From NCBI GenBank assembly GCA_964546845.1, contig CAZJMY010000424.1, positions 23,672 through 87,671 of the forward strand: a stretch of 64,000 nucleotides of DNA, written 5' to 3'. The notes beneath the pieces are model-generated. The model ran no database searches and was not told the DNA's origin. It saw only the letters and a list, made by a program, of their open reading frames with translations. Positions 1 to 14,849 of the stretch are shown here, piece after piece. The stretch's first letter is position 1. Every line of letters begins with the position of its first letter. This DNA is from an uncultured Myxococcales bacterium. Its GTDB lineage: Bacteria > Myxococcota_A > Polyangia > Fen-1088. The translations under genes were made by a program, and so were the position numbers.

Positions 1-8
1 CGCGGTTC

Positions 9-443
9 GTGCGCCTGATGCAGGTCGGCGATGTCGCCGCGGTGACGCCCACCGGACAGGTCGGCGTCTTCCAGACGCGCCTGAAGCGACTCGAGGATCT
101 GGGCCTCGTGAGCGAGGTCCGGCGCGTCCAGCACGCAGGCGCCGCTCCGAGCTGGACGGCGACGTTCCGGCCGCCCCTCACGCTCGCGCGCCTCCTCTCC
201 GACGTGATGCTGCAGTACCGGATCTTCGTCGTGAGCATGAAGCGGTACCGCGACGAGGTGCTCGCGCGGCACCGCGACGCGATCGGGAAGGTTCTCGAGG
301 GCAAGCCCGCCACGCTCTCCGGGCTGATGGCCGTCTCCCAGCACGCGGGCCCGGCGCTCGGCTCGTGGATCGCGAGCGAGGCCGATCGAAAGCGCTTCAA
401 GCAAACGACCGCGGCCTACGGCCGCACGACGGGGGTGTTCTGA
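9..443 (+). CDS. hypothetical protein, possible winged-helix DNA-binding segment; may be 5-prime truncated at window edge
   Basis: Track ORF whose frame stays open back to nt 3. LKRLEDLGLVSEVRR resembles a wHTH segment. The stop overlaps the next start (TGATG at 441-445). Confidence 0.45.
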   Translation: MRLMQVGDVAAVTPTGQVGVFQTRLKRLEDLGLVSEVRRVQHAGAAPSWTATFRPPLTLARLLSDVMLQYRIFVVSMKRYRDEVLARHRDAIGKVLEGKPATLSGLMAVSQHAGPALGSWIASEADRKRFKQTTAAYGRTTGVF

Positions 444-1246
444 TGAACGCAGGTGCGCGAAAGCCGATCGACGGCGCGTTCCGGAGCTGGTCGGACGGAC
501 GGTGCGTCCACCTGGTCGTCCAGTTCACTGGCGGCAACCTCGGGCGCAGCCCCGTGACCATGCACGCCAAGACCGACCTCGTGCCGGCGCGCGCGGCGGT
601 CCGCCGCCGGTTCGTCACGAGCGGCTACACCGAGCTCGCCGGCGATCCGATCGCGACCGAGGCGATGGCCACGCGGGTCGGCCTGTTCAGCGCGTTCCGG
701 CGCATTGGCCGCGCGGCCAAGGGCGCGGCGCTCCTCGCCACGGCGCCGGTCCGGACGCTGGGCGGCGCCGGGGTCAACGTCCTCAAGACGACCGGCAACC
801 TCGCCAAGGGGATCGAGGCCACCACCGCGATCCCCGAGTACCTGACGCGGCCTCTCGCGTGGCGCCCGGGGCGGAAGAAGGGCGGGCCCGCAGCTGCGGC
901 ACCCGCCGGAGACCGCGCGCCAGACGCCGAAGCGAATCAACCCGAGGAGGAGGAACCCATGAGCGAAGAATCGAGCGGCGCCGCCGCAAAGCCAAAGGCC
1001 GATCAGGTGCGAAAGGCGTCGTCGCTGCTCCGGCGCGCCGCCTTCAGCCCGAAGTCGGCCAAGCACGTCACCAACATCGCCAAGGCCGCCGCCGCCGGCC
1101 ATCCGGGCGCGCTGGTCGCGCACGCCGCGATCGCTCAGGCGCGCAAACAGCAAGCGAGGCCGCCGGCGTCCGCCGCTGCGCTGCCGCCGATGCTACGGCC
1201 GCTCCGCTCGGCGTCGTTCACCTCCTGGGCGCGGGGGGCCGCGTAG
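443..1246 (+). CDS. hypothetical protein with Ala/Lys-rich basic C-terminal half
   Basis: Internal ATG of track ORF 365..1246, overlapping the upstream stop. Co-oriented and coupled with its neighbours. No recognisable domain. Confidence 0.5.
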   Translation: MNAGARKPIDGAFRSWSDGRCVHLVVQFTGGNLGRSPVTMHAKTDLVPARAAVRRRFVTSGYTELAGDPIATEAMATRVGLFSAFRRIGRAAKGAALLATAPVRTLGGAGVNVLKTTGNLAKGIEATTAIPEYLTRPLAWRPGRKKGGPAAAAPAGDRAPDAEANQPEEEEPMSEESSGAAAKPKADQVRKASSLLRRAAFSPKSAKHVTNIAKAAAAGHPGALVAHAAIAQARKQQARPPASAAALPPMLRPLRSASFTSWARGAA

Positions 1247-1253
1247 GCGAATC

Positions 1254-1922
1254 ATGCGCGGTCGCTACGAAAGGAATCCGGGTCGGATCGTCGAGCTGAG
1301 CGTCGGCGGCGCCCAGGACGTGCTGGATCTTCGCTGGCGGGACGAGATCGCGCACGTCATCTGCGTGACGCTGGTCGGCCCACCGCGCGCGAGCGCAGAC
1401 CTCGTCAATGCAGCCGCGTGCGTCGCCTTCGTCCAGTGGGGCGCCGGCGAAGCGGAGGCGGAGGCCGAGATTGACTTCGGCCTCGGCGGCGTGGTGTTCA
1501 CGCTCCCGGCCAGCTCGATCCGGATCACCGCCGCATACGAGGACAACTTCTCGGGCTCGGAGTCTGCGCCGCCAGTGCGCGTGGGCGCGTTTGCGTCGGT
1601 CGGGAGCGGCGCGCGGGTGTCAATGCTGACCCGTACGCGCTTCCAAGGATCGACGGTCGATCCGGCCGCCGTCGTCGACTTCGAGGTGCCTCCGTTCGCG
1701 AAGGCGGTGCGGGTGCTCGGCGGCGACCAGGCGACGCGCGCGCTGCGGCTCGAGCTCTTCAGCAACACCGGCGGCGCGCCCGTCTATGTCGTGCCGATCC
1801 CGGCCGGCGCGGACGCACCCCTCGTCGACCTTTCGCCCGACATCACGACCGTCAGGATGACCAACACGGGCGCCGCCCCCCTGCCCGCGGGCGCGCGCGC
1901 CATCTTCCAGCTGGGGATCTGA
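1254..1922 (+). CDS. hypothetical beta-rich protein (virion structural candidate)
   Basis: Track ORF. The stop overlaps the next ATG at 1920-1924. Alternating hydrophobic pattern typical of beta-sandwich proteins. No motif recognised. Confidence 0.5.
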   Translation: MRGRYERNPGRIVELSVGGAQDVLDLRWRDEIAHVICVTLVGPPRASADLVNAAACVAFVQWGAGEAEAEAEIDFGLGGVVFTLPASSIRITAAYEDNFSGSESAPPVRVGAFASVGSGARVSMLTRTRFQGSTVDPAAVVDFEVPPFAKAVRVLGGDQATRALRLELFSNTGGAPVYVVPIPAGADAPLVDLSPDITTVRMTNTGAAPLPAGARAIFQLGI

Positions 1923-2587
1923 TGGAGGTGCCCAAGATCATGATCTCCGCGGCCTGGGACCCGGTCATCGAACGGTTCGCCGGACACGTGCCTGTCGCGT
2001 TCATTCGCGCGCTCGTTCACGGAGAGTCCGGCGGCGACTCGCAGAAGGAGAACCCCGTCAGCCACGCGGCCGGGCTTCTGCAGATCACCGACATCGTCCG
2101 CAAGGACTGGAACGCGGCGCACCCCGACGCGCCGGTCAGCCGCACGGACCTCTTCGACCCCGAGACGAACGTTCGCATCGGGGCCGCCCTCCTCAACCGC
2201 ATCGTCCAGACCTACCGGCGTCACCGCACGCTGGCGCCGGACTGGCGCTCGCGTCGCTATGCGGAGCTCGTGGCGCTCGGCTGGAACGCCGGCTACAGCG
2301 ATCGCGGTGGCGTCGGTCTGGCGGTCGGCGAGCTGGAGGCGGCGGGCGCTCGGCCCGATGACGTGACGGTCGACTCAGTGGCTGCCGTCGCCGCAGGGCT
2401 CCCGAAGGCCTCGCGCTTCGTCGCGCTTCCAGCGCGCGTCGCGTACGCCAAGGCGGTCGCCGACCTGTACCTGGGGAGCCGGCGCGCGCCGGTCGTCGCG
2501 TCGCGCGGCAGCGCCGTGGGGCCGGTCGTCGTCGCAGCGCTCGGCGCGTTCGGTCTCGCCCACTTCGGACGCAGGGGGTCCGCATGA
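1922..2587 (+). CDS. SLT-domain lytic transglycosylase with C-terminal transmembrane anchor
   Basis: Motif GESGGDSQKENPVSHAAGLLQIT matches the SLT catalytic E-S ... GLMQ signature. C-terminal hydrophobic helix VGPVVVAALGAFGLAHF. Confidence 0.8.
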   Translation: MEVPKIMISAAWDPVIERFAGHVPVAFIRALVHGESGGDSQKENPVSHAAGLLQITDIVRKDWNAAHPDAPVSRTDLFDPETNVRIGAALLNRIVQTYRRHRTLAPDWRSRRYAELVALGWNAGYSDRGGVGLAVGELEAAGARPDDVTVDSVAAVAAGLPKASRFVALPARVAYAKAVADLYLGSRRAPVVASRGSAVGPVVVAALGAFGLAHFGRRGSA

Positions 2588-3060
2588 TCACGGTGAAGCA
2601 AGTCGATCAGCTGGTGATCGGTGACGACGCCGTCGCCGCGCGTCTCTGGCCGCGCCTGGGCCCGAAGGTTCGCCAGGCGTACACCGCGGATCGTGACGGG
2701 TGGGTGGGGCTGCGGCGGAAGGTAGAGGCCGGTGAGACGCTGCCCGCGTCCACGCTCGCGGCGCAGCACAAGGTGTTCTCGGGGTGGGCGCGGGCTCTTC
2801 GCGCGGCTTCGACCCGGCCCAGGCAAGCCGCTGCGCGATCGAGCGGTCGGCCGGCAGGCGCGGCTGCGACCGCCCCGCTCAGGCCCACCGCCGCGGCGAT
2901 CAGGCCGATGGCCACGGCGGTCGTGCCGCCGGTCGCGGCCGCCAGTCTGTCGTCGGTCCCCGCGCTTCCCAAGCCCACCGCAGGAGCCGGCACCGCCGTC
3001 GCAGGAGGCCTGCTCCTCGCCGGCCTCGTCGCCGTCGCCGCACGGAGGAAGCGCGCATGA
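2584..3060 (+). CDS. hypothetical protein, Ala/Pro-rich linker and C-terminal TM anchor
   Basis: ATGA overlap with the upstream stop. C-terminal helix AVAGGLLLAGLVAVAA followed by RRKRA. Confidence 0.5.
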   Translation: MITVKQVDQLVIGDDAVAARLWPRLGPKVRQAYTADRDGWVGLRRKVEAGETLPASTLAAQHKVFSGWARALRAASTRPRQAAARSSGRPAGAAATAPLRPTAAAIRPMATAVVPPVAAASLSSVPALPKPTAGAGTAVAGGLLLAGLVAVAARRKRA

Positions 3061-3533
3061 GCAACTTCTACGAGAGCGGGGTGAGCGAGGTCAGCGGCCG
3101 TCTCTTCTCGGTGCTTTCGCCGTCCGCCATCAAGCAAGAGATCGACTCGGTCGACCTCTATATCCGCCGCATCGACGGCGACGTTCAGGGGCACAAGGCG
3201 AAGGTGGCCGACCTGCTCCGGGACTGGCACCTCTTCGTAGAGGAGTGGACCACGTTCCGCGACGGCGCCGGCTGGTTTGCGCGGACGACGGGCGCCACCT
3301 ACGACAAGGCGCTCGACTTCCGAAAGCGAGCCGACGCCTGGGACGAGCTCGTCCATCGGCGTGGGGCCTCGACCGCGCCGGTGGGACCAACGCCGGCGCC
3401 CGCCCCCAAGGGCGACCTCATCGGCCCCCTCGTGAAGCTCGCGGGCATCGGTCTCGCCGCCTACGTCGGCGTGAGCCTCATCCAAATCTACAAGCAGCGG
3501 GAGGTTCGGTATGTCGAACGACCTGGAGCGTGA
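3057..3533 (+). CDS. hypothetical protein with C-terminal TM anchor
   Basis: Internal ATG of track ORF 2784..3533 in an ATGA overlap with the upstream stop. C-terminal helix LVKLAGIGLAAYVGVSLIQIY. Confidence 0.5.
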   Translation: MSNFYESGVSEVSGRLFSVLSPSAIKQEIDSVDLYIRRIDGDVQGHKAKVADLLRDWHLFVEEWTTFRDGAGWFARTTGATYDKALDFRKRADAWDELVHRRGASTAPVGPTPAPAPKGDLIGPLVKLAGIGLAAYVGVSLIQIYKQREVRYVERPGA

Positions 3534-4356
3534 TTCCGCGTCGTACGACCGGATCCGCAAGTGGTTGGCTCGGACGCTCGAGGGTGAGGGCGTGGATCGG
3601 CTGGTCATCCGGCACGACACCGGCGCCGAGGTGGCGACCATGCGCGGCGAGGAAGGCGGACCGTTCGAGAGCAAGGACGGCATCGTAGACGAGCTCGCCA
3701 CCGCCATCGCCGATCGGGTCTTCGAGGACGCAATCGGCCTCGGCGGCGTCCAGCGCTACATCGCCACGGCGTACGGCCTGGACAAGGTCGTCGCGCGGCT
3801 CACGTTGCGCGAGAACGCCGACGCGTCCGGGGCCGATCGGCAGCCGGGCGATCCCATCGACAGCGAGCCGCCCACGGAGCGGGGCCTGCTCACGCAGACG
3901 ATGCGCCACCTCGAGATCAGCGAACGCACGCACGCGACGGTCGTCGCGAACATCTTCGCGATGCAATCGCGGATGCTCCGCGAGAAGGACGAGCGTATCG
4001 CGCACCTCGAGGACCGGCACTGGGAGACGGTGATCGCCGCCGAGCAGCTCGTCAGCGACCACCACCGCCGCCAGCTCGAGAACCGAGCCGCCGACCAGAA
4101 GGCCGAGGCGATGCGCGAGGTGGTGGGCACGTTCCTGCAACTCGCGCCAACGGCCATCAACAAGATCGCCGGTCGTCGCGTGCTGCAGGAGAAGACGTCG
4201 CCGGCGCTGGTCGGCCTGCGCGCGCTGGTCGGCACCTTGAAGCCCGAGCAGCTCGAAGCGCTGAAGTTCGTCCTGACTCCCGCCCAGCTCGAGAACTTCA
4301 GCGAGATCGTCACCTCCGAGGTGGCCGACGAGGAGAACAAGACCGCCAGCCGATAG
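3511..4356 (+). CDS. hypothetical coiled-coil protein (scaffold-like candidate)
   Basis: Track ORF with GGGAGG 7 nt upstream of the ATG. Long charged helical segments in the central and C-terminal parts. Confidence 0.5.
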   Translation: MSNDLERDSASYDRIRKWLARTLEGEGVDRLVIRHDTGAEVATMRGEEGGPFESKDGIVDELATAIADRVFEDAIGLGGVQRYIATAYGLDKVVARLTLRENADASGADRQPGDPIDSEPPTERGLLTQTMRHLEISERTHATVVANIFAMQSRMLREKDERIAHLEDRHWETVIAAEQLVSDHHRRQLENRAADQKAEAMREVVGTFLQLAPTAINKIAGRRVLQEKTSPALVGLRALVGTLKPEQLEALKFVLTPAQLENFSEIVTSEVADEENKTASR

Positions 4357-4367
4357 GAGCGCCCGCC

Positions 4368-5408
4368 ATGCCCAACACGTTCACCGCTCTCGACGTCCCC
4401 ATCAACGACGGCTCCGGCGTCCCCTTCATCACCCGGGACCTCGGCCGGCCGAAGACCATCGTCTTCGCCGGGCCCGTCCTTGGCCGCTACATCGTCGAGG
4501 GCTCGAACGACGGCGGCAGCAACTGGGACATCCTGGTCGACGACAGCGGCCAGCAGGCGTTCTTCACGACCCCGACGCCCGGTGTCCGCACGTTCGACTG
4601 CATCGTCGACCGCGTGCGCGTCCGGAGCGTCGGCAACGCTTCCCTGGCGGCGCCACCAACGATCGCACTCGGCGCGCCGCCGGCCGTGGGGACGCCGGTG
4701 TTCGGGGTGCTGGACATGCCGGCCGCGCCGGGCCTGGGCGCCCCCTTCGACCTCGGAATGGCGGCCGGCGCCTTCAAGACGTTCATCCTTCGGGGCGCGA
4801 TCCCTGCCGGCTCGCGATACACCGTCCTCGGCTCGATCGACGGCACCCGCTTCGACGAGGTCATGCTCTTCACGAGCGACCAGCAGGGCGCGCGCCCGGT
4901 CGAGTTCTTCTGCCGCTTCCTCCGCGTCCAGCGGGCCGCCGGAGGACCGACGCCGGTCCTCGCCTTCGGCAGCGAGGGCATCCTCGAGCCGGCGGGCGCG
5001 GTCACCTCCGAGATCTCGATCGCCGAGGACGGCGAGGTGACGACCGACTCGAACACGAACGAGGAGGTCCTGCGCCAGTACCGAGTACCGCTGGTTCTCC
5101 TGACTCCGGTGAGCCTGGGCCTTACGCTGGCCGGCGAGAGCCGCGGACCGGCCACCGCTCGGCAGGTGACCTTCCGCGTCCGCGCCGGCGGGACGCCCGA
5201 CCAGCCCGACGGAGCGGAGTTGCTGGCGATCCAGGACGTCGGCCCGGGCGACGTCGGCATCGTGGGTCGGTCCACGGCGGCTTTCCCGCGCCCGACTGAC
5301 CCCGCCACCCTCATCAAGGTGACCGGACAGGGCGGCGGCGTGAGCGAAGGGGCGGCGCCCGCGACGCTCCGCAACCTCGTCCTCGTGTTCAACGCGGCCA
5401 ACCCCTGA
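4368..5408 (+). CDS. hypothetical structural protein with an internal tandem domain duplication
   Basis: Track ORF with AGGAG upstream. Residues ~4-90 and ~112-195 align to each other (F.LD.P..G.G.PF...KT...G...RY.V.GS.DG...RV). The C-terminal module is shared with 6042..6617. Confidence 0.6.
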   Translation: MPNTFTALDVPINDGSGVPFITRDLGRPKTIVFAGPVLGRYIVEGSNDGGSNWDILVDDSGQQAFFTTPTPGVRTFDCIVDRVRVRSVGNASLAAPPTIALGAPPAVGTPVFGVLDMPAAPGLGAPFDLGMAAGAFKTFILRGAIPAGSRYTVLGSIDGTRFDEVMLFTSDQQGARPVEFFCRFLRVQRAAGGPTPVLAFGSEGILEPAGAVTSEISIAEDGEVTTDSNTNEEVLRQYRVPLVLLTPVSLGLTLAGESRGPATARQVTFRVRAGGTPDQPDGAELLAIQDVGPGDVGIVGRSTAAFPRPTDPATLIKVTGQGGGVSEGAAPATLRNLVLVFNAANP

Positions 5409-5437
5409 TTCACCACGCCCACAAGGAGAACGCACCC

Positions 5438-5992
5438 ATGTCCCAGGATGTCGCGCAGAGGAATCTCGATCTCGGAGGCTTCCGGATCGCCAACCTCGGC
5501 GACCCGGCCGCCCCCGGGGACGCCACCAAGACCGACAACGCCAGCCGTCCGATAGCGGCGGCGCGCAACCCGAGCCCGGGCGCCAGCGCGCTCGCCTCTC
5601 CGGCTGATCACGTTCACCCGCTCGAGCCGGACTTCGTGTCGCTCGCCGATCCCGCTCTGCAGGTCGTCGGCGCCAAGACCGAGGTCTGGTTCGGCGTGAT
5701 CGACTTCGACGAGATCGTGGGCGACCAAGTCCAGGTCGGGCTCAGCGGCATGCTCCAGACCTGCCTCGTGCAGGCCTGGCTCGATGGGCAGGTCGGCAAC
5801 CCGACCGCCGGGACGCTGGTGATGAACATCGACAGCTCGTCGCCGACGCTGGTCCCGGTCGCCTCCATCAGCAGCGCGCCCTTCGCGCGCCCCTCCGGCG
5901 CCCACCTCCTGACGCTCACTGCCGAGGCCGTTGGCCCGGCGACGGAGGGACGAACCTTGGGCCGGATCGTCACCCTTCGCGGCCTCTCCTGA
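5438..5992 (+). CDS. spike / tail-fibre-like protein, paralogue A
   Basis: AAGGAG RBS. The N-terminus (DVAQRNLDLGGFRIANLGDPAAPGDATKTDN ... PADHVHP) is a paralogue of 6042..6617 and resembles phage fibre N-terminal motifs. Confidence 0.55.
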   Translation: MSQDVAQRNLDLGGFRIANLGDPAAPGDATKTDNASRPIAAARNPSPGASALASPADHVHPLEPDFVSLADPALQVVGAKTEVWFGVIDFDEIVGDQVQVGLSGMLQTCLVQAWLDGQVGNPTAGTLVMNIDSSSPTLVPVASISSAPFARPSGAHLLTLTAEAVGPATEGRTLGRIVTLRGLS

Positions 5993-6041
5993 ACAACTGA
6001 CTGACCGATCACCGCCACCCGACCAACAAAGGAGCAGCATC

Positions 6042-6617
6042 ATGGCAAGAGACGTAGCGCAACGAGACCTCGACCAGGCCGGACACCGGATCTCCAACAT
6101 CGGCGCGCCGACCACCGCCGGCGACGCCACCAGGACCGACAACACGACCGTGCCGCTCGCCAGCAGCGGCGCGGGGTCGCCGGGTACGAGCCTGCTCGCG
6201 GCCCCCGCCGACCACGTCCACCCGGCGGCCCCGGGCACGAGCAGCTTCTCCGTCACCCTGAGCGACCCGAGCGAGCAGTCCCAGACCGGTCCGACCGAGA
6301 CCGTGATCGCCCAGTTCCCGATCGACTTCATCGGCGCCCCCCCGCACCTCGTCCCCACCTTCAACGCGCTGGTCGACGTCGATTCCGGCACCGCCACCTT
6401 CAACGTCCGTCTCGCCGGGACGCCTGACGCCGCCGACGGCGATGTCATCGTCACGATCCTCAAGGACGCCTCGGGCGCGTTCGAGCTGAAGTCGAGCCTC
6501 GGCCCCGTCTTTGCCCTGCCGGCCGCCCCCGCCCTCATCAAGATCACGGCCGCCAACGACAACGCCGAGGCGAGCTGCCGGATCAGGAGCAAGACCGTCA
6601 CGCTCCGTGCCTCGTAA
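6042..6617 (+). CDS. spike / tail-fibre-like protein, paralogue B
   Basis: Internal ATG of track ORF 5931..6617, preceded by AAAGGAG. The N-terminus (DVAQRDLDQAGHRISNIGAPTTAGDATRTDN ... PADHVHP) is a paralogue of 5438..5992. Confidence 0.55.
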   Translation: MARDVAQRDLDQAGHRISNIGAPTTAGDATRTDNTTVPLASSGAGSPGTSLLAAPADHVHPAAPGTSSFSVTLSDPSEQSQTGPTETVIAQFPIDFIGAPPHLVPTFNALVDVDSGTATFNVRLAGTPDAADGDVIVTILKDASGAFELKSSLGPVFALPAAPALIKITAANDNAEASCRIRSKTVTLRAS

Positions 6618-6639
6618 GCGCGGCGATCGGCCACTCACC

Positions 6640-6819
6640 ATGACCTGGCAAAAAGTCGCCGCACTCGGACTGCTCGTTTTCGGTTCGGTTGCGGCGGCTG
6701 TCTTTCATGCGGACCTGATCGCGGCCACGCTGGCCGGCGCCGCCGCCGGCTTCGCCGTCAACCGCGAACCGAACGGCGCGCGGAATGGTGACAGCCCGGC
6801 TCCGCAGCCGCGTGCGTAA
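6640..6819 (+). CDS. small membrane protein (59 aa, two hydrophobic segments)
   Basis: Internal ATG of track ORF 6511..6819. Hydrophobic sequence MTWQKVAALGLLVFGSVAAAVF...LAGAAAGFAV. Confidence 0.35.
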   Translation: MTWQKVAALGLLVFGSVAAAVFHADLIAATLAGAAAGFAVNREPNGARNGDSPAPQPRA

Positions 6820-6872
6820 GCCCTTGTCGACGCGATCGGTGCCCACCGTTCATCTCCTTCGACTCGCGTCGG

Positions 6873-6914
6873 TCGGCCGGATCGCCAAGGGAGGCCGAAT
6901 GGCGATCCGGCCGA
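6873..6914. terminator. perfect 14-bp inverted repeat (TCGGCCGGATCGCC / GGCGATCCGGCCGA) with 14-nt loop between convergent genes
   Basis: Read directly from the sequence. Lies between the + gene ending at 6819 and the - gene ending at 6987. No T-tract. Confidence 0.3.
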
Positions 6915-6938
6915 GGCCGACTCGGGGCGCTGAGTCAC

Positions 6939-6959
6939 GTTCGATTCCGCCCAGCCCGA
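6939..6959 (+). other. tRNA 3-prime-end-like fragment (T-loop, T-stem 3-prime strand, acceptor 3-prime strand); candidate att core
   Basis: G-TTCGATT-CCGCC-CAGCCCG-A matches G53, the T-loop, T-stem 3-prime strand, a 7-nt acceptor strand and the discriminator. The upstream sequence lacks the complementary T-stem and acceptor 5-prime strands, so this is not a full tRNA. Confidence 0.3.
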
Positions 6960-6986
6960 GCCCGTGGCGCCAACATCGAGACGAGG

Positions 6987-7922
6987 TCAGCGCTTCGGGC
7001 GGATCAAGGCCTCCGGGGGCAGTAGTTCGTTCTCGCGCGGCTCGGCCTCGGGCTGAACCGTCACGTGGCTGCGGCCCACGGCGCCTTCGATCCGGCGTCC
7101 AACTTCGCGGGCAATCTCGACGCCGTGAGCGTTCGATTGAATGACGACGTGGGCCGTGATCACCGGAGCGTCACCGGTGAGTGACCACACGTGCAGATCG
7201 TGAACGTCGCGCACGCCCGGTGTGTCTCGGGCGAGCGACTCGAGCGACGCGACGTCGATCCCGGCGGGAACGCCCTCCATGAGGACATTGGTTGCATCCC
7301 GTAGCAGGCGCCATGCCCCGAAGAGAATGAGCGCAGAGATCACGATCGATGTGATCGGGTCCGCAATGGTCCAGCCGAGCGTCAAGATCAAGACTGCGGC
7401 CAGCAGCGCGGCGACAGAGCCGGCCGCGTCCGCCAGAACATGCGCGGCCGCCGCCCGCATGTTGAGATCGTGCACCCCGCCGCGGGAGAGGATCCACGCC
7501 GACAGGACGTTGATCAGGAGCCCGACAGCGGCTACGACGAGCATCGGCAGGGCGTGAATGGGTTGTGGCGCCGCGAATCGCCGAATGGCCTCGACGATCA
7601 CCGCGATGGCGGTCACACCGAGGACGATTCCATTGGCGGCGGCGGCCAAGATCTCTGCGCGTCGGTAGCCGAAGGTTTTTCGGTCGGACCGCGGGCGGGT
7701 CCCGAGCGCCTGAGCCCACAGCGCCAGTCCCAGCGCGCCCGCGTCCGTCAGCATGTGGCCCGCGTCTGAGAGCAGCGCGAGGCTGCCGGAGAGAAGCCCG
7801 GCCACGACCTCGACCACGAGGAACGATGCCGTCAGGGCCAGCGCTATCCAGAGGCGCCGTCTCGATGCGGCTCCGCGTTCTGCCGCGGCCGGCGTGTGCT
7901 CGTGATGTCCGTGATCCGCCAT
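6987..7922 (-). CDS. czcD: cation diffusion facilitator (CDF) divalent metal efflux transporter
   Basis: His-rich N-terminus MADHGHHEH, six hydrophobic helices, and HxxxD motifs in TM2 (HMLTD) and TM5 (HVLAD). Confidence 0.9.
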   Translation of the reverse strand: MADHGHHEHTPAAAERGAASRRRLWIALALTASFLVVEVVAGLLSGSLALLSDAGHMLTDAGALGLALWAQALGTRPRSDRKTFGYRRAEILAAAANGIVLGVTAIAVIVEAIRRFAAPQPIHALPMLVVAAVGLLINVLSAWILSRGGVHDLNMRAAAAHVLADAAGSVAALLAAVLILTLGWTIADPITSIVISALILFGAWRLLRDATNVLMEGVPAGIDVASLESLARDTPGVRDVHDLHVWSLTGDAPVITAHVVIQSNAHGVEIAREVGRRIEGAVGRSHVTVQPEAEPRENELLPPEALIRPKR

Positions 7923-7959
7923 GACGGTTCCTCCCCCTGGTGGTCCGCGATCCTATCGG

Positions 7960-8472
7960 TCAGTGCGCTTCGGTCCCCGTGAGGGCGGCCCGCGTCTCCT
8001 CGATGCTCTTCTGCCGCGACTCGGGGTGCTCGGCAACATACAGGTCGAGGAGCCGGTGCAGTGTGTGCCGTTCGGCGGGTGTCATCCGATGTTCGGGGTG
8101 CTTCTTCGGCGCGGCCTCCGCCGGTTCCTTGCGCGCGGGCAGGGCAGCGCGATCTTCCCCGGCTTCGGCGGCTCTCTCCTTGCGGCCCGCCGCCTCGGCC
8201 TTCTTGGTTTCGAGCTCGATCTCCTTCTCGAGCTGTTTGGCGCGCTTCTCATCGCAGCCCTTCGGCTCGCAATCGCCTGGACACCCGCACTTCGCCTTTC
8301 GGTCGCAGTAGCACGATCCGGCGGAATCCTTGCGACATCCGCAGGCGTTCACGCCTTCGTTTGGTTCGGCTGCCCGGGCGGGGTTGGCGCACGCGACAGC
8401 CGTCACTATGCCGGCAACGACGAGGAGCGGAAATGCGATCGAACCTGATCCTCCAGCGAGTCTATCGGTCAT
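7960..8472 (-). CDS. secreted or lipid-anchored Cys-cluster (metallothionein-like) protein with Lys/Glu-rich helix and His-rich tail
   Basis: Signal-like N-terminus ending VTAVAC. Nine Cys within ~32 aa (ACGCRKDSAGSCYCDRKAKCGCPGDCEPKGC). The start overlaps the RND gene stop by 11 nt. Confidence 0.6.
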   Translation of the reverse strand: MTDRLAGGSGSIAFPLLVVAGIVTAVACANPARAAEPNEGVNACGCRKDSAGSCYCDRKAKCGCPGDCEPKGCDEKRAKQLEKEIELETKKAEAAGRKERAAEAGEDRAALPARKEPAEAAPKKHPEHRMTPAERHTLHRLLDLYVAEHPESRQKSIEETRAALTGTEAH

Positions 8473-11400
8473 GTTGGTCTCCCCCTTCTGTTGGTGCCCC
8501 GCCGTCGACGGTTCTTGGTCGGCGATTTGCGAGGGCGTAAACGGCCGGAAACAGGAGCAGCGTCAGCGCGGTCGCCGTGATGAGGCCACCGATGACGACC
8601 GTGGCCAGGGGGCGCTCGACCTCGCTCCCCGGCGCGGTCGACAGCGCCATCGGGACGAAGCCGAGCGCCGCCACAAGTGCCGTCATCAGCACGGGACGGA
8701 GGCGCATCTCGGCCGCCTGTGCGATGGCATCGCGCGGTGACATGCCCCGTTCCTGCAAGTGGAGGCAGAACGACACCAGCACCAGCCCGTTCAAGACGGC
8801 GACGCCGAACAGCGCGATGAACCCGACGCCCGCTGAAATACTGAACGGGATGTCGCGCGCCAAAAGTGCCAGCACGCCGCCCACCGCGGCGAAAGGGATG
8901 TTGGCGAACACCAGCAGGGCCGGCTTGACCCTGCCGAAGGCCAACCAGAGGAGAAACACGATCAGTCCAAGTGCGAGCGGGACGACGATCGCCAGGCGCG
9001 CCCGGGCCGACGCGTAGTTCTTGAACTGGCCGCCCCATTCGACGCGGTAACCACCGGGGAGTTTCACCTTGGCGTCGACGGCGGCGCGTGCCTCCTCGAC
9101 TGCCGACACCACGTCGCGCCCCCGGACGTTGAACTCGACATTGAGCCGCCGGGACTGCTTGTCGCGGTTCACGAGCGCCGGGCCTGTCTCGAGTACCACG
9201 TCGGCGACGTCGCCCAGCGGGACGATCTGGCCGAGCGTCGACTTCAGGGGGAGGGCGCGCACGACGTCCAGGCTTCCCTGATAATCGAGGGCGGTGCGCA
9301 CGACCATCGCGAACCGGCGGTCTTTCTCGAATACCTCCCCGACGGTTCGCCCGACCGCCATCGTCTCGGTCACCGTGTTCACGTCCTCGACGGTGAGGCC
9401 GTAGCGCGCGAGCCGCGCGCGGTCCGGGCGGATCCTCAGGTAGGTGAGGCCGGCTCCCTGCTCGGCGCGGACGTCCACGACGCCCTGGATGCGCTCCAGC
9501 GCGGATACGGTCTCGCCCCCGAGTTGCTGGAGCTTGTCGAGATCCGGGCCGTAGATCTGCGCAGCGGCATCGGATCGGACGCCTGCGATGAGCTCGTTCG
9601 TCCGCATCTGGATCGGCTGCGACACGGCGGCCGACATCTCCGGCACCTCTCGCTCAACCCTCTCGGAGACCTCGCGCGCGAGCGCGGCCTTCGTCAGCCC
9701 GGAACGCCACTCGGCGCGCGGCTTGAGGAGGATGTAGACGTCGCTCTGCTCCATGCCCATCGGGTCCGTCGCGACTTCGGGCGCGCCCGCCCGCGCGACG
9801 ACGTGCTCTACCTCCGCGATGCCGGCGAGGGCGCGTTCCAACCGACTGTCGGTGGCGACCGTTTCGCTGAGCGCGATTCCGGGCAAGCGCCGCGCCTCCA
9901 GCAGGAGATCGCCTTCGTCGAGCTGCGGGACGAACTCGGCGCCGAGGCGCGACAGCAGCGCCCCTCCCGCCGCGAGCACGACCAGCCCTGCGGCAAGCGT
10001 GATCGAGGGCCGGGCCAGGACGCGCCGGAGCGCGGGCGTGTAGCCGCGGTGGGCCTGGCGCATCAGCCAGGTGTCGTGGCTGCCGCGCGCGGGCCTCAGG
10101 AACCGACTGGCCAGCACCGGCACCAGCGTCACCGACAAGATGAACGCTCCGGCGAGCGCGTAGAGCACGGTCAGCGCCATCGGATGAAACAGCTTTCCTT
10201 CGATGCCGCGGAGGGCGAGGATCGGAAGGTAGACGATGCCGATGATCACCGTTCCGAACACGCTGGCGCCCAGCACCTCCACGGAGGCATCTTTGACGAT
10301 GCCAGGCCGCTGGCCGGCCTCCAGGTCGCTCCCCTTGTCGCGCTGAGCCTCCGCCAGGCGCCGGACGGCGTTCTCGACGATGATGACGGCGCCGTCGACG
10401 ATGAGGCCGAAGTCGATGGCGCCGAGGCTCATCAGGTTGCCCGATGCGCCGGTCAGCGACATGACCGTGACGGCGAACAGCATCGACAGCGGGATCGTGC
10501 AGGCGACGATCAGGCCGGCCCGAACGTCCCCGAGCAGGACGAGCAACACGATCACGACCAGCCCGGCGCCTTCGGCGAGGTTCCTCGCCACGGTCTTTAT
10601 GGTTCGACTCACCAGCTCCGAACGATCATAGAAGGGCTCGACGGTGATGCCCGCGGGGAGGGTCCGGCGCAGTTCCTCGAGCCGTGCTTTCACGCGCTCG
10701 GTGACGACACGCGAGTTCTCGCCCATCAGCATCAGCGCGACGCCCACGACCACCTCGCCCTTGCCGTCCATGGTCGCGGCGCCGCGGCGCAGCCGGGGAC
10801 CAAACCGTACGTCGCCGACGTTGGCGACGGTGATGGGCACGCCCTGCGGAGTCGTGCCCACCACGACGGACTCGAGGTCGGCCAGGCTGGTCACCAGGCC
10901 GACGGTCCCGATGACCACCTGTTCGCGGTTGTGCTCGATGTAGCCGCCGCCGGCGTTGGCATTGGCGCGCTCGAGCGCGTGAATGACCTCTCCGACGGAG
11001 AGGCTGGCGGCCTGCAGGCGCTTCGGATCGATGACGACCTGGTATTGCTTGTCCTCGCCCCCGAAGCTGTTGACCTCGACGACGCCGGGAACGGTACGGA
11101 GCTGCGGGCCGATGTACCAGTCGAGCGTCTCCTCGAGCTCCATGAGCGTGTGCCCCTCGCCCCGGACCACGAACTGAAAGACCTCGCCGAGACCGGTCGC
11201 GATCGGCCCCATCTGCGGCCGTCCGTACGCGGCCGGCACGGCATCCTCGGCCTCGCGCATGCGCTCGAGGACCATCTGGCGAGCGAAGTAGATGTCGGTC
11301 CCGTCGTCGAACACGATGGTCACGACCGACAGGCCGTACTTCGAGATCGACCGGATCTCCGACACCTTGGGGATTCCCGCCATCGCGCGCTCGACAGGCA

Positions 11401-11605
11401 CCGTGACGTACTGCTCGACCTCCGTGGGGGCGAGCGCGGGAGCCGCCGTGATGACCTGAACCTGGATGTTGGTGATGTCCGGGACGGCATCGATGGGCAG
11501 GGTGATGGCCGACCGGACGCCGACAATGATCAGCAACAGCGCCCCCAGGATCACCAGGGCGCGGTGGCGGATCGACCATGCCACGATCGCGTTGAGAAGC
11601 GCCAC
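8462..11605 (-). CDS. czcA: HME-RND efflux pump, CzcA-type (divalent cation)
   Basis: GTG start at 11605, 1 nt after the upstream TGA (track ORF trimmed by 36 codons). TM4 signature DFGLIVDGAVIIVEN is typical of the HME1/2 (Czc) classes. 1047 aa. Confidence 0.92.
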   Translation of the reverse strand: MALLNAIVAWSIRHRALVILGALLLIIVGVRSAITLPIDAVPDITNIQVQVITAAPALAPTEVEQYVTVPVERAMAGIPKVSEIRSISKYGLSVVTIVFDDGTDIYFARQMVLERMREAEDAVPAAYGRPQMGPIATGLGEVFQFVVRGEGHTLMELEETLDWYIGPQLRTVPGVVEVNSFGGEDKQYQVVIDPKRLQAASLSVGEVIHALERANANAGGGYIEHNREQVVIGTVGLVTSLADLESVVVGTTPQGVPITVANVGDVRFGPRLRRGAATMDGKGEVVVGVALMLMGENSRVVTERVKARLEELRRTLPAGITVEPFYDRSELVSRTIKTVARNLAEGAGLVVIVLLVLLGDVRAGLIVACTIPLSMLFAVTVMSLTGASGNLMSLGAIDFGLIVDGAVIIVENAVRRLAEAQRDKGSDLEAGQRPGIVKDASVEVLGASVFGTVIIGIVYLPILALRGIEGKLFHPMALTVLYALAGAFILSVTLVPVLASRFLRPARGSHDTWLMRQAHRGYTPALRRVLARPSITLAAGLVVLAAGGALLSRLGAEFVPQLDEGDLLLEARRLPGIALSETVATDSRLERALAGIAEVEHVVARAGAPEVATDPMGMEQSDVYILLKPRAEWRSGLTKAALAREVSERVEREVPEMSAAVSQPIQMRTNELIAGVRSDAAAQIYGPDLDKLQQLGGETVSALERIQGVVDVRAEQGAGLTYLRIRPDRARLARYGLTVEDVNTVTETMAVGRTVGEVFEKDRRFAMVVRTALDYQGSLDVVRALPLKSTLGQIVPLGDVADVVLETGPALVNRDKQSRRLNVEFNVRGRDVVSAVEEARAAVDAKVKLPGGYRVEWGGQFKNYASARARLAIVVPLALGLIVFLLWLAFGRVKPALLVFANIPFAAVGGVLALLARDIPFSISAGVGFIALFGVAVLNGLVLVSFCLHLQERGMSPRDAIAQAAEMRLRPVLMTALVAALGFVPMALSTAPGSEVERPLATVVIGGLITATALTLLLFPAVYALANRRPRTVDGGAPTEGGDQHDR

Positions 11606-11606
11606 G

Positions 11607-12830
11607 TCACTCCTCCTCGCCGAACGTGCCCTTGAGGATCGCGCTCTTGAGGGTGAAGGTGCCGTCGACGACGACCTGTTCGCCCGCGCGCAGCCCGCCC
11701 AGGATCTCGACACGGCCCCCGGCCGATCGACCGACGGTCACGGGATGCAGCTCGAAGTCTCCGTCTGGCTGGCGAACGAAGACGGCGTCCTTGCCAGCGA
11801 TGCGCGTGACCGCCGAAAGAGGAACCACCACGCGCTTGGCGGGGACAGCGGCCGGCCCGACGACCACGCGCGCCGTACCGAAGAGCCCGACCTTGACGAG
11901 GTCAGCGTGATTGCTAACGAGCACGCGGGCGGTGACCGTCCGGGCCGCGGGATCGATCTGACGGCCGATGGTTTCGATCGAACCTTCGAACGTTTCGGCG
12001 GGATATGCGTTGAGGCGGACCTCCGCCCTGGCGCCGACCCTCACTCGAGCGAGATCCTTCTCGAATAGCCGGCCGAGGAAGTACACGTGGTCCAGATCGC
12101 CAATGACGGCGATGACGTGCTCCGGCTCGACCGTCTGGCCCTGGACGGCGTCTCGGCTCAGGACGAAGCCTGCCAGCGGCGAGCGGATGGCGACGCGGGC
12201 GCTTCCGCCCGCGGCCTGGTCGGCGCCCTGTCCGAACGCGCCTAGCGTCTGCTTTGCGGCGGCCACCTCGGCCTCGAGCGCGGCCGCTTCCGCCGCCGCC
12301 GCGGCGGTCTCCTGTCCCGCCGCCAGGTTCTTCGCCTCGAGGCTCTTCAGGCGGTCGGCGTTGAGCCGGGCGGCCCTCGCCCGCGCGGAGGCGGCCGCCA
12401 GGGTGGCGCGGGCGCGCGCCAGCTCGGGCGATTCAAGGATCGCGATGATCTGTCCCGCCTTCACGCGATCGCCCTCCTTCGCCTTCACGTCGATGACGCG
12501 GCCGGGGAGGCGAGCCGCAAGGCGGGCGGACCGGTCGGGGTCGGCGGCGATTTCGCCTGTCAGGTCCACGGTCCCGGGGAGGCTGTCAGAGGAGGCGGCG
12601 GCGGTCTTGATCCCCGCCGACTTCACGACGTCGGCCGCGAGCCGGACTTTCGTCGGCATCTCTTCGTGCCGCTCCGACTCGTCCTCGTGGTTGGGGCCGG
12701 CCGCCGTCGCCCTTGCGCCGCCGTATTTGGGCGCGGGCGCCCCTTCTGGGGCGCCCGTGCCCGAGCCCCCGCCGCGCGTGCATCCGATCAGCAGGACGGC
12801 TCCGAACGCCATGATTGCGAGCCCGTTCAT
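11607..12830 (-). CDS. czcB: RND membrane fusion protein (periplasmic adaptor)
   Basis: True ATG at 12830, in an ATGA overlap with the OMF stop. Signal/lipoprotein-like N-terminus MNGLAIMAFGAVLLIGC, coiled-coil hairpin and beta-barrel regions. The 797-aa track ORF is an artefactual extension. Confidence 0.88.
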   Translation of the reverse strand: MNGLAIMAFGAVLLIGCTRGGGSGTGAPEGAPAPKYGGARATAAGPNHEDESERHEEMPTKVRLAADVVKSAGIKTAAASSDSLPGTVDLTGEIAADPDRSARLAARLPGRVIDVKAKEGDRVKAGQIIAILESPELARARATLAAASARARAARLNADRLKSLEAKNLAAGQETAAAAAEAAALEAEVAAAKQTLGAFGQGADQAAGGSARVAIRSPLAGFVLSRDAVQGQTVEPEHVIAVIGDLDHVYFLGRLFEKDLARVRVGARAEVRLNAYPAETFEGSIETIGRQIDPAARTVTARVLVSNHADLVKVGLFGTARVVVGPAAVPAKRVVVPLSAVTRIAGKDAVFVRQPDGDFELHPVTVGRSAGGRVEILGGLRAGEQVVVDGTFTLKSAILKGTFGEEE

Positions 12831-14152
12831 CGGGGACCTCCCGCGGCTCCTGCGAGCGGCAGTCCCACCACACGACGGAGATCGACCCACGCGATCGCGC
12901 GGGCGAGCCGCAGGTCGATGTCGCCCTGCAAGAGCTCGATCAGGCTGCGCTGCCACTGCAGCGCTTCGCGTAGCGTCAGCTGACGCGCGACGATCGCTTC
13001 GCGCAGCGCGGAGAGATCGGCCTGCGCTCGCTTGATGAGATCGGTCGCGAACAGACCGGCGGCGGCGTCCCGGGCGCGAACCGCGGCGACCGCCCGCGCT
13101 ACCTCCAGTCGCACACGCCGACGAACCAGCTCCTCCGACGCTTCGGAGGCGTGGATCTGCGCCAGGATCTCCGAGATCTCGCCCGCGCGGGTTCGGCCGA
13201 CCGGCGCCGGCAGCGGAAGCGGGATGGCGAGCCCCAGGCCCATGATCCGATCGTTGATCTCGCCGCGTTCGAAGAACGCCGAGAGGGTGGGATTCGGCAC
13301 GCGCTCGCGCCGGACGAGCGCCAGGCGGCGCTCGAGCACCTGGCGCTCCATCTCGGCGGCGCCGATCTCGCCGCGCAGCCGAAGGGCTTGCTCGTCCAAG
13401 GGTCCGGCCGGCAAGGAAGTCTGCGGCGGGAGGAGCGTCGCAGGCAACGCGAGCGTGTCCGCTTGCACGCCCAGCGTGGAGGCCAACACCGCGCGCGCCT
13501 CGTCCAGACGCCGTCCGGCCTCGACGCGCGAAAGCCCGATCCGGGCCGCCTCCGCGCGCGCGACGTCGGCCTCCACGCCCGCGGCCAGCGCCTCCTTGGC
13601 CCGCCCTTCGGCGTATGCGGCCAGCGCGCCGGCGGTCCCGTCCAGTTGCGTTGCGAAACGAAGCGACTCCTGCGCGGCGACCGCTTCGTAGTAAGCGGCG
13701 AGCGCGCCAGCGGCCACCTCTTGCTCCGCGACCTCGACCTTGCGCGTCTGGACCGCGACCGCGATCTCCGCCTCGCCGACACGCGCCGCCCGTTGGCCGC
13801 CAATCTCGAGCTCCTGAGAGACGGTCACGTTCCAGTTCAGGACCGACGCCTGTTCGGGCTGGGGCCGGCGCCGGTTCGCCACATTGCCAGATATCGTCGG
13901 ATTGCTCGGGAGCAATACGCCTGCGGTCTCGCGCCGGCCCGCGGCCGCCTGCACTTGCGCGCGAGCAGCGCGGACGTCGGGGCTCGCCGCGAGCGCGCAA
14001 CGAACCACCGTGTCAGCATCTGCCGGACGGCTGCACACCGGCGCCAGCGCGGGGCCGCCCGGTTCGGAATCAGCAGGCGCGACCTGGCCGAAGGCCGCGC
14101 GCGTCCACGCGCCGGCGACGGCGAACGCCGCCACGATCATCATACGGTTCAT
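12827..14152 (-). CDS. czcC: TolC-like outer membrane factor
   Basis: Signal peptide, two-fold repeated helical OMF architecture, and first position in the OMF-MFP-RND operon. Confidence 0.88.
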   Translation of the reverse strand: MNRMMIVAAFAVAGAWTRAAFGQVAPADSEPGGPALAPVCSRPADADTVVRCALAASPDVRAARAQVQAAAGRRETAGVLLPSNPTISGNVANRRRPQPEQASVLNWNVTVSQELEIGGQRAARVGEAEIAVAVQTRKVEVAEQEVAAGALAAYYEAVAAQESLRFATQLDGTAGALAAYAEGRAKEALAAGVEADVARAEAARIGLSRVEAGRRLDEARAVLASTLGVQADTLALPATLLPPQTSLPAGPLDEQALRLRGEIGAAEMERQVLERRLALVRRERVPNPTLSAFFERGEINDRIMGLGLAIPLPLPAPVGRTRAGEISEILAQIHASEASEELVRRRVRLEVARAVAAVRARDAAAGLFATDLIKRAQADLSALREAIVARQLTLREALQWQRSLIELLQGDIDLRLARAIAWVDLRRVVGLPLAGAAGGPR

Positions 14153-14233
14153 GGTTCCCTCGCGTAATTGGGTCAGCGACTGCCGGGTCGGGACGCACCA
14201 CGCGCCCCAGACCTGCCGCCGCTCGGTGGATCG

Positions 14234-14846: not shown

Positions 14847-14849
14847 CCG

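Follow-up and report, generated by a model that had tools for sequence, protein, structure and literature searches.

Non-tailed phages are under-sampled, and the bacterial non-tailed dsDNA groups known to us are recognised by a double- or single-jelly-roll capsid protein together with an FtsK/HerA ATPase. To our knowledge, a packaging ATPase is present in nearly all known icosahedral dsDNA phages. Among archaeal viruses, the Portogloboviridae (Sulfolobus polyhedral virus 1) are icosahedral and membrane-containing, with ~20 kb of dsDNA, a single-jelly-roll shell, no packaging ATPase and a protein-condensed genome. We know of no bacterial counterpart of such viruses.

Here we analyse a stretch of 64,000 nucleotides (the window) from a Polyangia metagenome-assembled genome (MAG). 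The window opens on a widespread, well-conserved module that has the parts list of a non-tailed virus, and in which neither hallmark is recognisable. Our best reading is that these are the late genes, for particle formation and host entry, of an integrated temperate element. We lean towards regarding the element as a provirus of an undescribed group of tailless viruses, known here from genes alone; judging by its gene content, the module most likely builds a tailless, membrane-containing particle. The group is large, and is found mainly in Polyangia (Myxococcota).

The element shares with the Tectiviridae, such as PRD1, a set of beta-barrel proteins, many small membrane proteins, a compact and translationally coupled late operon, and proteins that, like vertex spikes, combine a conserved N-terminus with a variable head. 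PRD1 P7 is a lytic transglycosylase held in the membrane by a C-terminal helix, as the SLT protein of the element appears to be. Unlike PRD1, the element lacks an FtsK/HerA ATPase, a detectable double-jelly-roll capsid protein and a protein-primed polymerase; it integrates, extends over at least ~20 kb and uses a primase-helicase, and it shows no sequence similarity in INPHARED. The Sphaerolipoviridae, Matshushitaviridae and Simuloviridae, which have vertical single-jelly-roll capsid proteins and genomes of 16-19 kb, are near the core element in size, and they resemble its inferred design in their small jelly-roll proteins, internal membrane and temperate members. Their two capsid genes, however, are adjacent and follow the packaging ATPase, whereas the candidate genes of the element (g208 and g222) lie three genes apart, without an ATPase and without a sequence match to these families. 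The Portogloboviridae and other ATPase-less dsDNA viruses would resemble the element in the mechanism proposed below; they differ in their archaeal hosts, and none is among the top 50 Foldseek matches of g222 or g208.

A conserved operon of late genes

A sequence-only reading of positions 1-6819 had listed eleven co-oriented ORFs on the + strand. All of them are present and translationally coupled, as follows.

3..443, +, g224, C-terminal part (146 of 224 aa; 5' end open in the window)
443..1246, +, g267, Ala/Pro/Lys/Glu-rich low-complexity protein
1254..1922, +, g222, two predicted tandem eight-stranded beta-sandwich domains
1922..2587, +, SLT lytic transglycosylase with C-terminal transmembrane anchor (PF01464 and hydropathy)
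2584..3060, +, g158a, tail-anchored membrane protein, TM 135-153
3057..3533, +, g158b, tail-anchored membrane protein, TM 121-142
3511..4356, +, g281, acidic, largely helical protein
4368..5408, +, g346, two similar beta domains and a variable C-terminal module
5438..5992, +, g184, fibre-like paralogue with a conserved N-terminal ~65 aa
6042..6617, +, g191, fibre-like paralogue of g184
6640..6819, +, g59, small membrane protein, TM 6-24, final gene of the module

The couplings reported earlier hold at 441-445 (TGATG) and at 2584 and 3057 (ATGA); the junction at 1920-1924 is TGATG rather than the ATGA type that had been given for it. A further pair of neighbouring genes overlaps by 23 nt at 3511, and the AGGAG ribosome-binding sites ahead of 4368, 5438 and 6042 stand 7-10 nt from their starts.

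This 6.8-kb block is the distal part, about half to two-thirds, of a ~9-kb module whose gene order is g195, g208, g171, g224, g267, g222, SLT-TM, g158a, g158b, g281, g346, one or two fibre paralogues, and g59. The same 13-14 genes occur in unchanged order in more than 40 loci, mostly from Polyangia MAGs and from soil and other metagenomes. Against four relatives (dS 0.35-2.8), dN/dS is 0.04-0.7 for 13 of 13 module genes tested, a range which indicates that all eleven window genes are under purifying selection. Because these ratios are low and the order is kept in more than 40 independent loci, the ORFs are genes and not chance ORFs. The distribution of the element family is patchy: of 401 genomes sampled from the phylum, 6 carry it, and one MAG has two copies.

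The proteins had also been described as orphans by eye. That description stands for the databases searched, the SLT domain apart: there is no protein match to the module families among the 50,697 phage records of INPHARED, no module family was found in the 2.9 million viral contigs of IMG/VR with the sequence patterns used, and no module family has a PDB sequence match. It does not stand for metagenomes, where the families are large. Even if the module is non-viral, it comprises several large protein families with no Pfam/PHROG match or PDB sequence relative, and the mobile element of soil myxobacteria that carries it is of a new type.

The core cassette

Five successive genes, g208-g171-g224-X-g222, form a cassette that is kept in the divergent loci L005/L019, L017 and L062 at 25-35% identity and 50-64% GC; genes like g208, g171 and g222 recur in further Myxococcota genomes at 61-74% GC.

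The beta-rich character proposed for 1254..1922 is borne out by the AlphaFold2 model of g222, which is all-beta and without helices (pLDDT 88, pTM 0.86). Foldseek matches this model only to proteins with two beta-sandwiches (TM <=0.46), including the STIV A223 penton base, PyShell and XepA. No double-jelly-roll capsid protein is among its top 50 matches; such proteins typically carry helices, which the g222 model does not. The family is large, with more than 100 clusters at 60-99% identity and 1,190 clusters at 50% identity (E<=1e-3). None of 106 sampled members matches Pfam or PHROGs, and g222 itself has a weak match to a PHROG 'head protein' (E 0.017). We regard g222 as the hallmark of the group and as a candidate capsid or vertex protein.

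In g208, a small jelly-roll core lies behind N-terminal (D/E)EILG repeats. Weak fold matches to this core are the PRD1 P5 knob, the CCMV coat protein, a cyanophage cement protein and a chain of HHIV-2, the last being a further likeness to the Sphaerolipoviridae group. These matches have E >= 2.6e-3, the TM-scores over the g208 and g222 models together are <=0.48, and no double-jelly-roll capsid protein is among the 50 matches listed for g208. The gene has the strongest codon bias (GC3 0.95) and the lowest dN.

The remaining cassette proteins are g171, a Cys-His-Asp peptidase-like protein, and g224, a conserved, alpha-rich core protein. The full g224 ORF (L001 17440..18114) encodes 224 aa; it begins at contig position C424:23440, 231 nt before the window, and its first 78 codons lie upstream. 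It has 23 invariant positions in common with homologues of 33-37% identity in L005, L017 and L019, has HMM matches in L062, and has no PDB sequence match.

Membrane, fibre-like and helical proteins

The transglycosylase and its membrane anchor, proposed from the sequence alone, are confirmed by a Pfam match (PF01464, E 5.8e-9) and a Kyte-Doolittle segment at residues 198-216; the protein is 67-83% identical in relatives, with dN/dS 0.11-0.23. The same hydropathy analysis agrees with the anchors suggested for the two 158-aa proteins (C-terminal, 135-153 and 121-142) and the 59-aa protein (N-terminal, 6-24). In g158a the N-terminal 80 aa are conserved and an Ala/Pro-rich linker is variable, while identity in relatives is 50-84% for g158b and 68-90% for g59.

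Variation in the module is concentrated in the fibres and in the C-terminus of g346. The two fibre-like proteins are indeed paralogues (34% identity, E 3e-27), and their N-terminal motif weakly matches phage genes that are mostly annotated as tail fibre. Some relatives are missing g184, and g191 is one of the module's most variable genes (34-71% identity in relatives, dN/dS up to 0.73). The gene at 4368..5408 had been put forward for a possible capsid fold, and its sequence points elsewhere: g346 contains two galactose-binding-like repeats (residues ~5-103 and ~112-202; 31% internal identity, E 1.5e-7) with the motif R-Y-x-V-E-G-S-x-D-G-x-x-W/F and a weak Pfam match to F5_F8_type_C. Its C-terminus is 29% identical to g191 (E 3e-8), a variable module common to both, and in relatives the N-terminal 205 aa are kept and the C-terminus is swapped. 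It therefore looks like a candidate receptor-binding or vertex protein.

Two helical or low-complexity proteins complete the set. The g281 alignment has 84% mean column identity; the protein has relatives of 30-34% identity in L055-L061 and HMM matches in L069 and L070, and is a candidate scaffold or assembly factor. Across relatives g267 ranges in length from 245 to 421 aa while keeping its position in the cassette (50-60% identity, dN/dS 0.31-0.40); we infer a candidate scaffold or DNA-condensing protein.

An envelope machine would also be compatible with the SLT enzyme, the many membrane proteins, the peptidase-like protein and the variable adhesin-like ones. Such an apparatus would release no free particle: its adhesins, peptidoglycan-cutting enzymes and membrane proteins would form an envelope-spanning or surface structure through which the element passes between cells in contact, or would serve some other role at the surface. 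The lack of a packaging ATPase and of matches to these families in viral contig collections is likewise consistent with it. Yet the element ORFs contain no Pfam or PHROG match to a relaxase, coupling protein or VirB4-type ATPase, nor to secretin or pilin families; the SLT domain is the only part common to the module and conjugative (ICE/T4SS) systems, and we know of no precedent for an ATPase-free transfer machine. The jelly-roll proteins, and an EILG-repeat protein followed by a peptidase-like gene, rather resemble shell maturation, and the phage-like N-terminal motif of the fibres and the homing endonucleases inside the module of one relative also argue for a virus. We consider a non-viral apparatus unlikely.

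Hallmarks of known viruses

No terminase, portal or tail genes had been seen in the 6.8 kb, with the proviso that an ordinary terminase, portal or HK97 capsid upstream would make the module the fibre/lysis end of a tailed prophage. We find none of these in the 23.6 kb upstream: no ORF of contig positions 1-31,000 matches terminase, portal, HK97 or tail families (Pfam, PHROG), tail tube and tape-measure genes included. The absence extends to the whole MAG, which has no match to PF05065 or PF03237, and to the precomputed Pfam annotation of the relatives, which holds no tailed-phage hallmark family. Because terminase, portal and HK97 capsid are missing upstream, the module is not the end of a tailed prophage. 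The weak fibre motif of g184 and g191 and the 'head protein' match of g222 speak for that origin; the right-hand borders of the L003 and L007 elements, formed by a recombinase and host genes, speak against it. The upstream sequence rules the ordinary tailed prophage out, and we leave it almost no probability.

The FtsK/HerA packaging ATPase, which the earlier reading had suggested looking for upstream, is absent there, throughout the element and in four divergent relatives. No module protein of the window's element has a Walker A motif, and the late modules of L005, L017, L019, L022 and L062 have only isolated Walker A motifs with no Walker B following. Across the MAG, PF01580 matches only the chromosomal FtsK, encoded on a different contig.

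The element ORFs include no polymerase family; the replication gene is a Toprim + DUF927 primase-helicase. Of Tectiviridae features, we see no protein-primed family B polymerase and no inverted terminal repeats; of the Corticoviridae, no rolling-circle (P12-like) Rep family among element ORFs, and a conserved element of ~20 kb or more as against a ~10-kb circular genome; of the Helvetiavirae, no second capsid gene adjacent to g208 and no ATPase; and of the Inoviridae and other filamentous phages, no Zot-type ATPase, rolling-circle Rep or ~50-aa major coat protein family (Pfam, PHROG).

These results bear on the earlier likening of the module to tectivirus- or corticovirus-like elements with an internal membrane. 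The parts list does fit: beta-barrel proteins and vertex spikes, small membrane proteins, and a transglycosylase anchored in a membrane as P7 is. Weak fold matches include the PRD1 P5 knob and the penton base A223 of STIV. Membership of the PRD1/PM2-type lineage (Tectiliviricetes), its proteins having diverged beyond the reach of our searches, does not follow. The defining ATPase is absent in all lineages, no double-jelly-roll protein is among the 50 matches listed per model, TM never exceeds 0.48, and the primase-helicase stands in place of a protein-primed polymerase or Rep. We judge such membership distinctly improbable.

A possible mechanism

If the module does build a virus particle, g208, g222 or both would form a protein shell round a membrane in which the transglycosylase and the tail-anchored proteins sit. 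During maturation g171 may cut the EILG-repeat N-terminus of g208, and g281 and g267 may act as scaffold or DNA-condensing proteins. With no packaging ATPase, the genome would therefore be enclosed by co-assembly or condensation, and not pumped in. The host would be bound by g346 and the fibres, and at entry the membrane-anchored transglycosylase would open the peptidoglycan, as PRD1 P7 does. Against the virus reading we have counted the missing packaging ATPase, the generic fold matches, the absence of matches in the viral collections searched and the lack of an adjoining recombinase.

More tentatively, we propose that the g208-g171-g224-X-g222 cassette may serve as the morphogenetic hallmark of temperate dsDNA viruses of bacteria that form a large group, unrelated to known phage lineages and so far missed by virus-detection pipelines. 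Their membrane-containing particle would consist of novel small jelly-roll proteins, with a Cys-His-Asp peptidase acting on EILG repeats, and would enclose ~20 kb or more of DNA without a packaging ATPase. The cassette group spans at least ~1,200 hallmark-protein clusters at 50% identity, in hosts of 50-74% GC. Should the group form particles, no earlier icosahedral-type group of bacterial dsDNA viruses without a packaging motor would be known to us, and the failure to find such elements in IMG/VR or PHROGs would be explained. Profiles of g222 and g208 can be used at once to mine metagenomes.

The integrating element and its cargo

The 23.6 kb upstream of the window contain three further module genes (g195, g208, g171) and the start of g224. 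Farther upstream are the 1,045-aa Toprim-DUF927 primase-helicase and regulators. Other genes of the element code for a divergent pair of MerR/excisionase-like regulators, a Hel308-like helicase accompanied by a WYL regulator, and a DNA methylase. At the end of the contig, 22 kb upstream, there is a tyrosine integrase. On the right, two features follow the module.

6820..30888, no strand assigned, cargo slot with ~24 kb of metal-resistance genes (CDF transporter, czc/cus RND pumps, bufferin cluster, others)
30889..31641, -, element-linked N6/N4 DNA methyltransferase

Nucleotide homology to relatives ends by ~6781 and is back at 30897, and the methyltransferase has 86% protein identity to its L007 counterpart, which there comes after the module, with similarity also to those in L003, L013, L014 and L015. 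The right-hand boundary of the element is not at 6819. In L003 and L007 a large serine recombinase and then host genes come after the methylase, ~4-5 kb past the module, and the conserved element from replication module to recombinase measures ~20 kb or more in relatives. No recombinase adjoins the module in the window's copy, which has lost it and carries the 24 kb of cargo, with its module genes intact. Its own replication gene, the recombinase and host genes at the borders of relatives, and the patchy distribution support placing the module in a mobile element that integrates and has a primase-helicase of its own.

A backbone of integrase or recombinase and primase-helicase, with defence genes in cargo slots, is also seen in P4-like satellites and PICI-type islands. 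The element might accordingly be a satellite or defective element that replicates and integrates by itself and takes its shell and packaging from a co-resident or superinfecting helper virus, the module serving only entry, adhesion and remodelling. The lack of a packaging ATPase and of a proven capsid protein, and the lost recombinase, agree with this. Those islands, however, have few or no structural genes, or HK97-type ones, whereas the element has 13-14 conserved late genes, far above the number we know of in satellites. Codon bias and conservation peak in g208, the jelly-roll protein; neither the MAG nor the surroundings of any relative contain a tailed-phage capsid or terminase; and in four divergent lineages no gene set other than the cassette looks structural. 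Dependence on a helper is therefore improbable in our view, and we retain the provirus reading.

The interval from g59 to the methylase holds 0.2-6 kb of variable genes in relatives, whose cargo slots include the defence genes DarTG, HsdM and a PLD-like nuclease. In the source genome, a defence island adjoins the element.

A co-oriented block of functional genes

The sequence-only reading had placed eleven co-oriented ORFs at positions 1-6819, and all of them are found on the plus strand, together with the start/stop coupling and the AGGAG sites that it described. The contig that carries them (CAZJMY010000424.1, hereafter C424) is 141,850 bp long, with the window at its positions 23,672-87,671, and belongs to a metagenome-assembled genome (MAG) of 6.46 Mb in 1,020 contigs, with approximately 70% GC and 84% completeness; the closest relatives of the element come from Polyangia MAGs. 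We name the genes of the module by the length of their products in amino acids.

Gene content from the left contig end to the end of the module
C424:1-8000 (L002 and L001 1-1941): tyrosine integrase truncated at the end of the contig, AbiJ-like gene, Hachiman pair (HamB helicase and HamA); defence island adjoining the element
Upstream, after the Hachiman genes, -: WYL regulator
Upstream, after the WYL gene: Hel308-like helicase (906 aa), then small ORFs
Upstream, after the small ORFs: primase-helicase with Toprim and DUF927 (1,045 aa); FRG-domain protein
Upstream, between the FRG-domain protein and g195, divergent: MerR/excisionase-like gene
Directly upstream of the window, +: g195, g208 (L001 16208-16834, that is, C424:22208-22834) and g171, part of the same block as the module genes of the window
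Starting upstream and ending at 443, +: g224, whose last 146 codons form the first ORF of the window (3..443)
443..1246, +: g267
1254..1922, +: g222
1922..2587, +: SLT transglycosylase
2584..3060 and 3057..3533, +: g158a and g158b
3511..4356, +: g281
4368..5408, +: g346
5438..5992 and 6042..6617, +: fibre-like paralogues g184 and g191
6640..6819, +: g59

The transglycosylase assignment is borne out by a Pfam match to the SLT domain (E 5.8e-9), and hydropathy supports the proposed membrane anchors: the SLT protein and the two 158-aa proteins each have a C-terminal transmembrane helix, and the 59-aa protein has an N-terminal one. The two supposed spike genes are indeed paralogues (34% identity, E 3e-27). 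All other module proteins lack a significant match in Pfam or PHROGs, and profile searches with g222, g208, g171, g224, g346 and a wide g222 alignment returned no sequence relative in the PDB. In comparisons with four relatives by the method of Nei and Gojobori, dN/dS lies between 0.04 and 0.7 in each of the 13 module genes tested (dS 0.35-2.8), and we therefore conclude that these genes are functional.

The sequence upstream of the window would have made the module the end of an ordinary tailed prophage had it carried terminase, portal or HK97 capsid genes. None is present in the 23.6 kb upstream, and PF05065 and PF03237 have zero matches across the whole MAG, so that a tailed-prophage end is scarcely credible. 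The element is not a tailed phage.

An integrative mobile element

Relatives of g222 form more than 100 clusters in soil metagenomes, at 60-99% identity, and from contigs around relatives of g222 and g281 we obtained more than 40 loci. These loci share the gene order o260-o72-o162-primase-[variable]-MerR(-)-g195-g208-g171-g224-g267-g222, where o260 is a gene of the left arm, followed by SLT-g158a-g158b-g281-g346-fibre(s)-g59. Their left arm holds a WYL gene, sometimes a RecA-like gene, a Hel308-like helicase and variable cargo that includes DarTG and HsdM. Two of the loci (L003 and L007) continue beyond the module with one or two small minus-strand genes, an N6/N4 methylase (-) and a large serine recombinase (+), after which host genes begin. 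The family is patchy, occurring in 6 of the 401 genomes sampled from the phylum, and one MAG has two copies. Given the recombinase next to host genes, the patchiness and the MAG with two copies, this is an integrative mobile element.

In L003 (7948-8460) the g171 homologue has an in-frame stop and is called as two genes, and this copy may be decaying. In L015, which comes from a Polyangia MAG, the cargo slot downstream of the module contains homologues of the left-arm genes o166, o181 and o260 in inverted orientation (16887-18576); this indicates module shuffling between elements. The MAG studied here has a second, fragmentary module of WYL, RecA-like and Hel308-like genes on contigs C1007, C64 and C103, with 68-80% protein identity to the genes of the element; no second structural module accompanies it in the assembled part, and the left-arm module may also occur on its own.

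The right boundary of this copy

The methylase of the element, whose protein is 86% identical to its L007 counterpart, is found at 30889..31641 (-), 24 kb beyond g59. Since the interval between g59 and the methylase is a variable cargo slot of 0.2-6 kb in relatives, the right boundary does not lie at 6819. In this copy the interval (6820-30888) is filled by a 24-kb island of metal-resistance genes (CDF, czc, cus and bufferin genes, among others), and this island may be cargo of the virus-like element or an insertion into it. A large serine recombinase is absent from the entire MAG; this copy may no longer be excisable by its original enzyme.

We also considered as attR a fragment resembling a tRNA 3' end (6873-6959; 6939-6959). 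ARAGORN finds no tRNA gene within contig positions 1-35,671, no tRNA gene in the MAG matches the fragment, and the one other 26-nt match in the MAG is on a contig that has no tRNA gene. The fragment has no repeat upstream, and no direct repeat of at least 14 nt linking both sides was found. Lacking a tRNA and a repeat, and with the methylase 24 kb further on, the fragment was rejected as a boundary.

Candidate shell and receptor-binding proteins

The products of the conserved late module comprise beta-sandwich proteins, variable fibre-like proteins, small membrane proteins and a transglycosylase anchored in the membrane. The confident model of g222 (pLDDT 88, pTM 0.86) consists of two tandem eight-stranded beta-sandwiches without helices, and Foldseek lists only two-sandwich proteins among its matches, all with low TM scores. 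They include the diatom PyShell, XepA, tandem CBMs, the STIV A223 penton base (rank 9), birnavirus VP2 and picornavirus polyproteins; double-jelly-roll capsid proteins are missing from the matches listed.

The second candidate, g208, begins with 2-4 (D/E)EI[LM]G repeats, retained in relatives down to 25% identity, followed by a linker and a domain of about 110 residues, for which the model shows a small jelly roll (pLDDT above 90 in the core). The fold search with this domain gave weak matches, the best at E 2.6e-3; among them are a TNF-like lectin, a phage fibre, the PRD1 P5 knob, a cyanophage cement protein, CCMV coat protein, nucleoplasmin and an HHIV-2 chain. This gene combines the highest GC3 (0.95) with the lowest dN, which would be typical of a structural protein made in large amounts. 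The repeats may serve as a signal for processing or for anchoring. In g171 the motifs G-x-G-D-C and Y-H are invariant and (E)D-P is conserved, a Cys-His-Asp order that would be that of papain or transglutaminase-like enzymes. This peptidase-like gene directly follows g208 in the loci examined, except that L017 and L062 have an additional ORF and that the order differs in L067/L068.

The sequence-only reading had singled out 4368..5408 (g346) as well as g222 for a possible jelly-roll fold. The former is internally repeated (31% identity, E 1.5e-7), and its C-terminus resembles that of 6042..6617 (E 3e-8). Residues 1-205 are conserved, with the motif R-Y-x-V-E-G-S-x-D-G-x-x-W/F present twice; this part is galactose-binding-domain-like, with a weak Pfam match to F5_F8_type_C, and in relatives the C-terminus of the protein is replaced. 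Because this C-terminus is swapped between relatives and is common to a fibre paralogue, we favour a receptor-binding role and reject a double-jelly-roll capsid protein. The N-terminal 25 residues of the fibre paralogues weakly match 91 phage records, each match individually non-significant (E 0.03-10) and, among the matches listed, mostly annotated as tail fibre.

Packaging and the proposed particle

No module protein of this element contains a Walker A motif, and the sole FtsK in the MAG is chromosomal, on a different contig. Canonical P-loop proteins in relatives are limited to RecA/DnaB-like genes of the replication module. Since these RecA/AAA_25-type genes lie in that module on the other strand, match the DnaB_C/RecA families and have no counterpart in this element, they were rejected as packaging ATPases.

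The module had been likened to tectiviruses and corticoviruses. The ATPase and the replication genes speak against placing it in Tectiviridae or Corticoviridae, and the fold matches do not decide on the capsid fold; we would therefore say that the element works like these viruses, not that it is a member. A highly diverged virus of PRD1/PM2 type is quite improbable. The reading that we lean towards, by a modest preponderance of probability, is a tailless particle with a membrane: g208 and/or g222 would form its shell, g171 would mature g208, g346 and the fibres would bind the host, and DNA would be enclosed without a motor. An element without a motor might also be a satellite that depends on a helper, which we think unlikely. 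Membrane-anchored and surface-binding proteins might instead serve a non-viral contact or surface apparatus, to which we assign a small probability.

A large uncharacterised group

Profiles of g208, g171, g224 and g222 recover this cassette, with its gene order unchanged, in three divergent lineages of 50-64% GC (L005/L019, L017/L022 and L062), and further Myxococcota genomes (61-74% GC) have g208-, g171- and g222-like genes. In the first two lineages further small ORFs come after the cassette, among which, in L005, are numerous tail-anchored membrane proteins and an SLT protein; a protein of 1,126 or 1,354 aa comes next. Inside the late module of L017, two homing-endonuclease-like ORFs (16156-16932 and 19409-20188) have NUMOD3 motifs, with a weak GIY-YIG match in the second.

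An exhaustive HMM search with g222 yields 1,190 clusters at 50% identity (E<=1e-3), 306 of them at E<=1e-10, and none of 106 sampled family members matches Pfam or PHROGs. With the patterns tried, IMG/VR gave no match to profiles of g222, g208 and g224 or to a remote family member; the 50,697 phage records of INPHARED gave none to the 14 concatenated proteins or to the SLT protein alone. Full-text search of the literature found no description of the element, and a 2026 survey of myxobacterial viruses proposes six new viral groups, naming only tailed phages among them. The element belongs to a large uncharacterised group.

A reduced cassette with g208-, g171-, g281- and g222-like genes occupies a stand-alone contig of 17,409 bp (L069, G230:C4:1-17409; 61% GC) in a near-complete genome of the same class (11.5 Mb, 10 contigs). 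No terminal repeat was found on this contig, which also encodes a Lys/Pro/Ala-rich histone-H1-like ORF and may represent an episomal form.
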